NCBI RefSeq assembly: GCF_030013205.1
Contig: NZ_CP122648.1
Length of the DNA: 64,000 bases
Strand: one strand, 5' to 3'
DNA from: Escherichia coli
GTDB taxonomy: Bacteria > Pseudomonadota > Gammaproteobacteria > Enterobacterales > Enterobacteriaceae
In this document: positions 42,142 to 53,128 of the stretch, one piece after another
Position numbering within the stretch: the first letter of the stretch is position 1
Layout of the letters: every line of letters begins with the position of its first letter
Program-made: the position numbers and the translations under genes
The notes under the pieces: generated by a model
What the model was told of the DNA's origin: nothing
Databases searched by the model: none
Seen by the model: the letters and a program-made list of their open reading frames with translations, nothing else

Positions 42142-43554
42142 TTACAGGACGTGAACAGATGCTGTGTTAGTAGTGCCGCTCGGTACCAGTGCACCAGAAA
42201 CCATAACTACAACGTCACCTTTGTGTGCCAGACCGCTCTGCAGAGCCAGTTCTTTACCCAGACGGTAGAAATCATCAGTAGAAGTGATCTCTTTAACCAG
42301 TTGCGGTACAACGCCTTTGCTCAGTACCAACTGATGAGCCGTTTTTTCGTTGGTGGTCAGTGCCAGGATGGTGGCATCCGGGAAGTATTTACGTACTGCG
42401 CGAGCAGATTTACCGCCCTGGGTAGCAACCACGATCAGCGGGGCATCCAGTTTTTCAGCAGTTTCAACGGCACCACGGCATACCGCTTCGGTAATGCGCA
42501 GTTTACGGTTGTCATTGTTGAACTCGAGACGGCTGTTCATCACGCGGTCGGTACGTTCGCAGATGGTCGCCATGATAGAAACCGCTTCCAGCGGGTATTT
42601 ACCTTTTGCGGATTCACCAGACAGCATCACTGCGTCAGTACCGTCGAGGATGGCGTTTGCAACGTCACCGGCTTCTGCGCGAGTCGGGCGTGGGTTTTTG
42701 ATCATGGAATCCAGCATCTGGGTCGCAGTGATAACGACTTTACGTGCACGGATACATTTTTCGATCATCATCTTCTGGGCGAAGATAACTTCTTCTACCG
42801 GGATTTCTACACCCAGGTCGCCACGCGCAACCATGATGCCGTCAGAGGCTTCGAGGATTTCGTCGAAGTTGTTGAGGCCTTCCTGGTTTTCGATTTTGGA
42901 GATGATGTGGATGTTTTCGCCGCCGTGCGCTTTCAGGTGCTCACGGATTTCGATAACGTCAGAACGCTTACGAATAAAGGAAGCAGCGACAAAGTCTACG
43001 CCTTGTTCGCAACCAAAGATCAGGTCCTGTTTGTCTTTTTCAGCCAGTGCTGGCAGGGCAATGGAAACGCCAGGCAGGTTCACACCTTTGTTTTCACCCA
43101 GGTCGCCGTTGTTCAGCACTTTACAGATAACTTTGTTACCTTCAATGGCAGTAACTTCCATACCGATCAGACCATCGTCAACCAGTACGGTGTTGCCAAC
43201 AGACAGGTCAGTTGTGAAACCTTCATACGTTACCGCAACCATTTCGCTGTTGCCGATAACAGATTTATCAGTGGTGAAAGTAAAGGTCTGACCCGCTTTC
43301 AGAGAAACGTCGTTACCGCCTTCCAGTTTCATGGTGCGGATTTCCGGACCTTTGGTATCAAGCAGGATAGCGGCGGTTTTACCAGTTTTGCTCATCACGT
43401 TGCGCAGATTCTGAATGCGCTGACCGTGTTCTGCATAGTCACCATGAGAGAAGTTCAGACGCATAACGTTCATGCCAGCGTCCAGCATTTTAGCTAACAT
43501 CTCTTCAGATTCGGTTTTCGGTCCGATGGTGCAAACAATTTTGGTCTTTTTCAT
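42142..43554 (-). CDS. pykF: Pyruvate kinase I
   Basis: 470-aa protein from ATG at 43554 ([16 protein letters not shown]); ORF track extends 72 codons upstream. Confidence 0.97.
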
Positions 43555-44110
43555 GACAGTCTTAGTCTTTAAGTTGAGAAGGATGGGAGAAACTTGCTTT
43601 CTGGGCGCACTGCCGGAAAGCGAATCCGGTATTACGAAAGTGGTGGTGCCTCGCTCTAAGGATAGGTGACATCGAAAAAGCGTGCAGAGGAATGTGTGCT
43701 TGTGTCTCAGCCCAACGTGAGTGCCTGTTTTTGAGTCGTTGAGTTCTACAGTCCAAAGTGCTGAAACCATTCAAGAGTCAATTGGCGCGCATTATACGCT
43801 GAAATTAATCCAAAAGGAAAACAAAAACAGCGTTTCAAAAAATATACAACTTGTTAGACAATAAATTGTTATCAAAGATTTAACGTTCCAGGGAAAAGGT
43901 TACGCAAAAACTTCGCTGTTTGCGCAACGTCTGGTGCCGGGGTTGTCACTGTGAAGATAAGTGAAAGTTCATCCGGTGTATAAATACATCATCGCTCAAT
44001 TGCTACAGTTAAAATAATTTATCGCGTTATTTGTCTGATTTTGTTTGATTTTTGTCTAATTGGTTAGATTGATATATGCTGATAGTTGGCATGATAAATA
44101 GGTATAAAGA

Positions 44111-44320
44111 ATGGGAAACCGGACAAAAGAGGATGAACTGTACCGAGAAATGTGCAGAGTTGTCGGTAAAGTTGTGCTGGAAATGCGCGATCTGGGGCAG
44201 GAACCAAAGCATATTGTTATCGCAGGCGTATTACGTACAGCATTAGCCAATAAACGCATTCAGCGCAGTGAGCTGGAAAAGCAGGCGATGGAAACCGTCA
44301 TTAACGCACTGGTAAAATGA
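44111..44320 (+). CDS. fumD: Small fumarase-like protein FumD (YdhZ)
   Basis: 69-aa ORF matching K-12 YdhZ. Confidence 0.85.
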   Translation: MGNRTKEDELYREMCRVVGKVVLEMRDLGQEPKHIVIAGVLRTALANKRIQRSELEKQAMETVINALVK

Positions 44321-44560
44321 CCATTCAGGATGAGGCGATAAGCTTCATCCTGATATTCTTGCTTCAGTTGCGGTCCAGTTAATCATTCTAAATAACAACT
44401 GCTGAAATTATACGAATTTCGGTATGTATTTTAATTTATAACGATAATGTTATTTTTATTTTCTGCAATGAACGTCACAAATAATTGTCGTTTAAGTTAA
44501 ATTTATTTCAAATGATAATAAATATCAGTTCACTTATAATTTCTTGCTTTGTGATTTTAA

Positions 44561-44574
44561 TTGATAACGATCAA
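44561..44574. promoter_or_regulatory. FNR-binding site upstream of ydhY
   Basis: TTGATAACGATCAA, perfect match to FNR consensus TTGAT-N4-ATCAA, about 200 bp upstream of ydhY. Confidence 0.6.
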
Positions 44575-44776
44575 TGTTAAGAGCTCAGAATAATCACATT
44601 ATTTTTTTCTCCTAACCATAAAGGATTAGTTTATCAGCGTTAAGTTTTTTCTCATACACTATCGGGTTAGGGAAAATATCTGGTGTTGGGGACAGAGTCA
44701 GCAGCGTATTAGTTGAATGCTTAATATCAGTCTGCTGAATTGTCAGCACTGTGTTTGCGAAGAGGATGCGAAATAA

Positions 44777-47526
<2,750 letters not shown>

Positions 47527-52662: not shown

Positions 52663-52739
52663 TGGTGCGTCCGAGTGGACTCGAACCACCGACCCCCACC
52701 ATGTCAAGGTGGTGCTCTAACCAACTGAGCTACGGACGC
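52663..52739 (-). tRNA. valW: tRNA-Val (anticodon GAC)
   Basis: Reverse complement reads GCGTCCGTAGCTCAGTTGGTTAGAGCACCACCTTGACATGGTGGGGGTCGGTGGTTCGAGTCCACTCGGACGCACCA; valV/valW label by synteny. Confidence 0.93.
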
Positions 52740-52743
52740 AGGA

Positions 52744-52820
52744 TGGTGCGTTCAATTGGACTCGAACCAACGACCCCCACCATGTCAAGGTGGTGCTCTA
52801 ACCAACTGAGCTATGAACGC
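52744..52820 (-). tRNA. valV: tRNA-Val (anticodon GAC)
   Basis: Reverse complement reads GCGTTCATAGCTCAGTTGGTTAGAGCACCACCTTGACATGGTGGGGGTCGTTGGTTCGAGTCCAATTGAACGCACCA; 4-nt spacer to neighbour. Confidence 0.93.
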
Positions 52821-53128
52821 AACGTTGTAGGTGACAACGGGGACGAATATTAGCGGCAGAGTGGGAAGGTGGCAAGAGGCAAAACGTAATTTTCTGCGCT
52901 ATTTCGACCGTTTGCAGAGCTTTTAAGCAAATTGGCTATATTTTGTTGATTTGCAAGGGCGATTTTTATTCAGGATCGCATTTACATCTGACACAACCCA
53001 ATAATCTGTGTATCAGAGTTTAAACAGAGTTGTTTGCCACCATCTCAAAATCTGTCGTGGATAAATCCTCCGTAGCCTTTACACTTAGGTAGCAATAAAG
53101 GCACACAGATGCAGCAAAGGAATAAATC

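Follow-up and report, generated by a model that had tools for sequence, protein, structure and literature searches.

The described systems closest to the DNA considered here are UP elements of the rrnB P1 class, the tandem operators of the OmpR/PhoB family (PhoP box, pho box and ArcA sites), class II FNR promoters, and the AT-rich, curved promoters bound by H-NS. UP elements follow the consensus nnAAAWWTWTTTTnnnAAAnnn at -59 to -38 and are contacted by the alpha-CTDs of RNA polymerase at about -42 and -52. Class II FNR promoters carry TTGAT-N4-ATCAA near -41.5 (the ydhY promoter, a neighbor of the locus described below, is an example). The PhoP box is a direct repeat with the consensus (T/G)GTTTA-N5-(T/G)GTTTA. 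ArcA sites consist of two to five direct repeats at 11-bp spacing (PMC3798270).

The window analyzed here is a 64,000-nt stretch of Escherichia coli DNA (contig NZ_CP122648.1) in which a spacer of 556 bp (43555-44110) separates pykF from fumD (Table 1). The spacer is 100% identical to that of E. coli FDAARGOS_497 and 98.7% identical to that of K-12 BW25113, and it is present in 5,425 of 5,426 complete E. coli genomes. The fumD product, annotated as a fumarase, is barely studied; the literature available gave no defined promoter or regulator for fumD/ydhZ, and a search on "b1675" returned unrelated papers only. Rfam covariance models gave no match at E <= 1 across 43400-44800, and thus no known non-coding RNA there. 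The 5' UTRs reported for pykF are at most 231 nt long (PMC10469882 supplement), which puts the pykF promoters at least 245 bp from the repeats that concern us. These repeats were picked out in an initial annotation as four imperfect units at roughly helical-turn spacing, just upstream of fumD and divergent from pykF, a placement with which RefSeq agrees. The segments quoted there are present as given (TTTGTCTGATT at 44030-40, TTGTTTGATTT at 44041-51, TTGTCTAATTGG at 44052-63 and TTAGATTGATA at 44064-74). Three of the units are real, spaced 10-11 bp apart over 44030-44061, in phase with the helix; the proposed fourth shows no periodic self-similarity.

Table 1. Features of the pykF-fumD region (window coordinates; transcript positions assume +1 near 44087)
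Feature	Position	Strand	Basis or remarks
pykF	start codon at 43554	minus	RefSeq annotation; divergent from fumD
ynhH small ORF, protein YnhH (Pfam YnhH-like)	43562-43756	minus	RefSeq; inside the long, highly conserved pykF leader
Upstream edge of fumD module, AAAATAATTTATCGCGTTA	44008-44029	+	Escherichia conservation resumes at ~44008
Repeat unit 1, TTTGTCTGAT	44030-44039	+	Tandem Repeats Finder array; would span ~-57 to -48
Repeat unit 2, TTTGTTTGAT	44040-44049	+	9/10 identical to unit 1; would span ~-47 to -38
Repeat unit 3, TTTTGTCTAAT	44050-44060	+	holds proposed -35 hexamer
Proposed -35 hexamer TTGTCT	44052-44057	+	in unit 3, within conserved TTTTGTCTAA; 17 bp before conserved -10
Promoter spacer, 17 bp	44058-44074	+	contains the proposed fourth unit, TTAGATTGATA (44064-44074)
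Alternative overlapping -10, TATATG	44073-44078	+	same region as TATGCT
Proposed -10 hexamer TATGCT	44075-44080	+	inside TGATATATGCTG (44070-44081), nearly invariant in 25 sequences
Shine-Dalgarno AGGT of fumD	44100-44103	+	feature entry 44100-44320
fumD (ydhZ) coding sequence, 69 aa	44111-44320	+	ORF list and RefSeq annotation
fumD-ydhY spacer, AT-rich	44321-44776		contains perfect ydhY FNR box (44561-44574)

Tandem Repeats Finder, run on the spacer, reports one array only, 44030-44061, with period 10, 3.1 copies, 78% matches, a score of 41 and the consensus TTTGTCTGAT. Its three units are T-rich and lie head to tail. Lag-10 self-identity over the array is 0.73. Dinucleotide shuffling of the segment attains this value 25 times in 5000 (p ~0.005), and no other 32-nt stretch in the window does. 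When the spacer itself was shuffled, 27 of 2000 shuffles (1.35%) contained some Tandem Repeats Finder array with a score of 41 or more; such an array with a period of 9-12 turned up in 8 of 2000 (0.4%). (Over 44062-44100, by comparison, 4131 of 5000 shuffles reach the observed self-similarity; TGAT recurs at 44036, 44046, 44070, 44080 and 44092, a recurrence that is marginal at 244 of 5000 shuffles.) The array is locally unusual, yet judged by statistics alone its significance would not survive a window-wide correction; it is credible because of the conservation data. The repeats are, as had been held, not random AT-rich DNA.

For conservation we collected 80 fumD loci from Enterobacteriaceae genomes and, in addition, Salmonella and E. 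fergusonii contigs. Loss of the repeats in related species, along with no effect of mutation on expression, had been named as what would count against the array, and the alignments show the repeats kept. A 43-nt block covering the repeats is single-copy; of 5,424 E. coli genomes, only 19 fall short of 95% identity over it, and 713 carry the window allele. The one base of the repeat region that separates the window from K-12 lies in unit 3 (TTTGTTTAAT in K-12, TTTGTCTAAT in the window), a C/T polymorphism of the proposed -35 hexamer that reads TTGTTT in K-12 and most E. coli and TTGTCT in the window. Among 25-28 Escherichia, Citrobacter and Salmonella sequences, conservation is concentrated in ATTTnTTTGATTTTnnTTG (44028-47), TTTTGTCTAA (44050-59) and TGATATATGCTG (44070-81), while the 10 nt at 44060-44069 are the least conserved columns of the fumD module. 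Distances between these blocks are constant to within 1 nt in the three genera, and so is the total length of the three units, even where ttrRS rather than pykF lies upstream. Unit 1 is kept as TTTnnTTGAT in Escherichia and Citrobacter, and its identity to unit 2 is 7-10/10 in most species of these two genera vs. 5/10 in Salmonella.

Sharp edges to the conservation mark out a functional module of about 100 bp with the repeats inside it. Across Escherichia, a highly conserved pykF-side block (43555-43840) and a variable, unalignable stretch (43930-44005) precede a second conserved block that runs to the fumD start codon. The repeats within it have 16/20 invariant columns per 20-nt window, equal to the -10 region, while DNA 60 bp upstream cannot be aligned. 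The DNA upstream of the module is common only to genomes that retain pykF beside fumD. In Salmonella and the Citrobacter freundii complex, homology to the E. coli spacer starts immediately past the stop codon of ttrR, and in the Enterobacter clade the fumD promoter directly adjoins a metQ-like gene and its terminator; it is these boundaries at the pykF, ttrR and metQ-like neighbors that define the module. (Salmonella and the C. freundii complex (loci L083-L087 and L022) have the tetrathionate sensor genes ttrS-ttrR as the immediate upstream neighbors of fumD, co-oriented with it, and the ttrR stop codon is ~92-97 bp from the fumD start codon. A separate rearrangement is seen in Escherichia sp. 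MOD1-EC7003, where an insertion of ~125 bp (positions 2862-2988 of locus L006) resembling the enterobacterial repetitive intergenic consensus, ERIC, lies downstream of the predicted fumD -10/start region and ahead of the ribosome-binding site, leaving the three upstream repeats intact.)

The three repeats most likely represent the -35 and the upstream half of a fumD promoter. A conserved block, a variable 17-bp stretch and then an invariant block together make a promoter footprint, and a promoter scan turned up no pair other than TTGTCT-17-TATGCT that combines optimal spacing with A at -11 and T at -7. The two hexamers match consensus at 8 of 12 positions; an automatic promoter scan did not call the pair, and found no minus-strand promoter in the repeat block, where none is apparent by eye either. 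TATGCT, with its C at -8, resembles TATACT, the sigma-S -10. Transcription would start at about 44085-44088, and from a +1 near 44087 unit 3 would hold the -35 while units 1 and 2 would span ~-57 to -38. The parts of published start-site supplements and tables that could be searched have no entry for a fumD start. Shimada 2014 proposed a different K-12 pair, TTGTCT-18-TTTAAT, with a -10 that has no A at -11 and that several Citrobacter species do not conserve. The Enterobacter clade, in which a terminator replaces the upstream DNA and units 1 and 2 are absent, has TTGTAT-17-TAAGCT at the same spacing (TATGCT in one species); units 1 and 2 are therefore not essential to the core promoter.

Published binding data are consistent with a promoter at this end of the spacer. 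By genomic SELEX, sigma-70 holoenzyme and H-NS each have a site in the ydhZ/pykF spacer (PMC3946193), and sigma-S holoenzyme gives a peak at 1753168 on the genome map (PMC5493296). The map was calibrated on the PdhR box of fumD/pykF at position 1753987, reported by the same laboratory as the sigma-S peak (PMC7660256), which is window 43281-97. The sigma-S peak then falls at about window 44108, the fumD end of the spacer, an approximate position with SELEX probes every 105 bp; on the same map the repeats occupy about 1,753,215-1,753,246.

In the mechanism we propose, unit 3 would carry a weak -35 set 17 bp from a weak, sigma-S-like -10, and units 1 and 2 would form a T-rich, phased, promoter-proximal element whose TTT runs and TTGA(T) motifs line up along a single helical face, positioned where the alpha-CTDs of polymerase (an UP-like element) or a class I/II activator might touch the DNA. 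The sigma-70 and sigma-S holoenzymes can recognize the region unaided by accessory factors, and H-NS binds the same AT-rich spacer. We give about an even chance to this reading of the repeats, as a -35 plus a phased T-rich upstream element contacted by polymerase or an activator and covered by H-NS. The repeat, its conservation, its fixed length and the footprint come from the present analysis; polymerase and H-NS binding in vitro come from the literature. From these we infer the start point, the contact by alpha-CTD or activator, and any effect on expression. The likeness to UP elements lies in the A/T-rich -57 to -38 region beside a weak -35, with two sub-sites one helical turn apart, and in the binding of the region by polymerase alone in vitro. 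The difference is that units 1 and 2 are G-interrupted T runs rather than A/T tracts, and, compared position by position, match the UP consensus poorly. The repeats are a conserved promoter-proximal cis-element of an ordinary kind, and such findings are unsurprising to a specialist in bacterial promoters. A likely fumD promoter with a conserved upstream element is nevertheless a concrete target for reporter and footprint work.

The initial annotation had taken the repeats for a multi-site regulator binding array. Their non-random, phased and conserved character stands; a multi-site operator for Cra, FNR or NarL/NarP, the regulators it named for comparison, is not supported, and a dedicated multi-site regulator is unproven. 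The consensus used for Cra (FruR) was RSTGAAWCSNTHHW; the spacer matches it once, at 43760-43773, close to pykF and 270 bp away from the repeats. NarL/NarP sites are TACYYMT heptamers, usually paired (7-2-7); the repeats contain none, and an isolated one lies on the minus strand at 44098-104, over the ribosome-binding site. For FNR, the 14-mer homologous to the Salmonella box discussed below, CTGATTTTGTTTGA, has mismatches at 4 of 10 positions and does not fit the FNR box in E. coli. An alternative FNR-like 14-mer at 44045-58 has two mismatches, a level reached at the chance rate (43 found vs. 38 expected), and its K-12 version, TTGATTTTTGTTTA, has three by our own count; the same scan recovered the ydhY box with no mismatch as a positive control. 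The K-12 FNR ChIP supplements of Myers 2013 (PMC3688515), in the portion available, list a peak and a site at ydhY, which is FNR-bound, and the supplement text has no ydhZ/b1675 entry there. (Two further candidates were set aside. For PdhR, the published "box" AgcTGGTcagACCttTa lies at 43281-43297 on the minus strand, ~260 nt inside the pykF coding sequence rather than in the spacer, the half-site AATTGGT at 44058-64 is without a partner, and the full consensus matches nothing in the spacer. For Fur, the best 19-mer match in E. coli has 8 mismatches, which is background.)

It is still conceivable, though unlikely, that the three units are a tandem operator for some direct-repeat-binding regulator, an OmpR/PhoB-family response-regulator dimer or tetramer of the type that occupies 10-11 bp repeats next to, or in place of, a poor -35 and recruits RNA polymerase. 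Direct repeats of 10-11 bp, the last of them overlapping a weak -35, are the architecture of PhoB, PhoP and ArcA sites, and the duplication of TTTnnTTGAT, at the identity and fixed spacing given above, holds in most species of two genera. Against the PhoP consensus the window matches at 10 of 12 positions and the K-12 allele, TGTTTG-ATTTT-TGTTTA, at 11 of 12. Two-mismatch matches of this kind, however, occur at chance (18 found vs. 16.3 expected), and the first PhoP-like half-site is present only in E. coli and the closest clades, being missing from Citrobacter, E. fergusonii and Salmonella. The repeat spacing is compatible with ArcA direct repeats, yet the accessible portion of the ArcA ChIP-seq supplement text has no ydhZ or pykF entry. 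The CpxR half-site GTAAA, by our own reading, is not matched in the repeats; a Salmonella cpxR proteomics paper, as far as it was available, reports changes in FumD abundance. No regulator was identified among those checked, the array has no second copy in E. coli genomes that would hint at a regulon, and the region is bound in vitro by polymerase alone. Compared with OmpR/PhoB-family operators in general, then, the locus is alike in its three 10-11 bp repeats with the promoter-proximal one over a poor -35, and differs in giving no significant match to any consensus compared, no ChIP support and no other genomic copies.

The alignments also show a different arrangement in Salmonella. Three S. 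enterica subspecies carry a perfect FNR consensus, TTGATTTG[C/G]ATCAA (TTGAT-TTG[C/G]-ATCAA, no mismatches), at exactly the columns that units 1 and 2 occupy in E. coli, ~76 nt before fumD (positions 2425-2438 of loci L083 and L084, 2925-2938 of L031, and ~2526-2539 of L085-L087). This suggests anaerobic control of fumD by FNR in Salmonella. The TGAT of unit 1 aligns with the left half-site of the box, and unit 2 in Salmonella carries the right half-site, ATCAA. The same DNA is thus a direct repeat in Escherichia and Citrobacter and an inverted repeat in Salmonella, as the unit identities of 7-10/10 and 5/10 reflect. Citrobacter (TTGATTTTCATTGA) differs from the Salmonella box at three core positions, E. 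coli at more, and one Superficieibacter has TTGATTTGCATCGA at these columns. Against class II FNR promoters, the likeness consists of the perfect Salmonella box at the homologous position, the left half-site TTGAT in most Escherichia and Citrobacter, and the perfect box of the neighboring ydhYVWXUT operon; the differences are that E. coli, with CTGAT-TTTG-TTTGA, reaches only 6/10, that ydhZ is absent from the K-12 FNR ChIP supplement text so far as available, and that the Salmonella box would be centered near -43.5 to -45.5 from the inferred -10, not at -41.5.

Units 1 and 2 of E. coli might accordingly be read as a decayed, functionless FNR site, with the apparent direct repeat arising incidentally when two substitutions (ATCAA to ATTGA/TTTGA) hit T-rich DNA. 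We consider this quite improbable. The homologous Salmonella box, the Superficieibacter and Citrobacter sequences, and the four mismatches of the E. coli homolog (together with the ChIP supplement text just mentioned) all fit it. A remnant should drift, however, and the block is instead nearly invariant in 5,424 E. coli genomes and, in Escherichia, as conserved as the -10 region beside upstream DNA that cannot be aligned; moreover, the FNR box could instead be a Salmonella gain. A related scenario, to which we would also give only an outside chance, makes the Escherichia/Citrobacter element a working operator for a direct-repeat-binding regulator, derived from or replaced by an FNR-type inverted repeat. 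To turn TTGAT...ATCAA into TTGAT...TTGA takes two substitutions, both in the right half-site (ATCAA to ATTGA). If true, this would be a natural switch in the symmetry class of a binding site, and hence in its regulator, with the core promoter fixed.

H-NS provides a further possible explanation, and a doubtful one: the repeats would be a nucleation and spreading surface, in which phased T runs and a near-consensus motif load filaments that silence fumD and the AT-rich fumD-ydhY region. The SELEX H-NS site in the spacer agrees with this, as does GCGATAAATT at 44016-44025 on the minus strand, which matches the high-affinity motif TCGATAAATT at 9 of 10 positions, although matches at that level (10 found vs. 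5.7 expected) are not significant alone. PMC3661553 lists the adjacent ydhY/ydhZ spacer as an H-NS-associated "promoter island", and the absence of a fumD start from the available part of the start-site comparison table would be consistent with silencing. Like other H-NS-bound, AT-rich curved promoters, the locus combines AT-richness, phased T runs, a SELEX-positive spacer and an adjacent near-consensus motif. It differs in that its predicted curvature is moderate and unexceptional, and in that AT-richness suffices for H-NS, which does not need bases and spacing conserved over three genera. H-NS binding is compatible with the promoter reading and is not an alternative to it.

The remaining explanations are dismissed briefly: intrinsic curvature cannot account for the repeats, being predicted only at the 78th-91st percentile of the window (home-made Bolshoy/Trifonov wedge model), a variable-number, slippage-prone repeat is ruled out by the same length (+/- 1 nt) across three genera, concerted evolution of units 1 and 2 by agreement at variable positions 4-5 in ~5 of 20 lineages (chance, as read by eye), and paralogous arrays by BLAST of the 43-nt block, which finds a median of one place per genome.

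To return to the promoter reading, the comparative result is perhaps more useful than the repeat itself. The alignments suggest that enteric lineages have rewired the control of fumD while the core promoter stayed largely conserved. Escherichia and Citrobacter would have phased direct repeats, Salmonella a perfect FNR box, Klebsiella, Raoultella and Kluyvera a different promoter overlaid with Fur-like GATAAT hexamers, and Enterobacter the core promoter alone, preceded by a terminator. Such patterns hint at conditions in which FumD matters, anaerobiosis and iron limitation among them. The promoter of Klebsiella, Raoultella and Kluyvera reads TTGATT-17-AATAAT, and two segments that look like Fur hexamers, GATAATGATAAT and AATAATGAT, overlap it. 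Six loci (L066, L069, L071, L072, L075, L081) share a conserved, Fur-box-like CAATAATGATTTGATTGATAATGATAAT at ~-50 to -20 from the fumD start, in which GATAAT stands twice in perfect tandem; Kluyvera (L070, L073, L076, L077, L079) has it as well. Matches in this clade to the 19-mer Fur consensus reach only 12-13/19, a score equaled by ~5% of background windows, and the hint of a Fur box is a lead, not a call.

Other features of the window were observed in passing. The middle of the spacer between pykF and fumD holds two palindromic octamers, TTACGCAA at 43900-43907 and TTGCGCAA at 43920-43927, with their centers 20 bp apart; E. albertii has TTGCGCAA at both places. Escherichia species keep the octamers but vary in the intervening 12 nt. 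The pair looks like a candidate operator. Upstream of the pykF promoters, at 43857-43886, is a conserved block, CACAATAAAYTGTTATCAAAGATTTAACGT, with an inverted repeat ACAAT..ATTGT. Elsewhere in the window, a Tandem Repeats Finder array at 52663-52821 consists of two 81-nt copies that agree at 92% and resemble two adjacent minus-strand tRNA genes.
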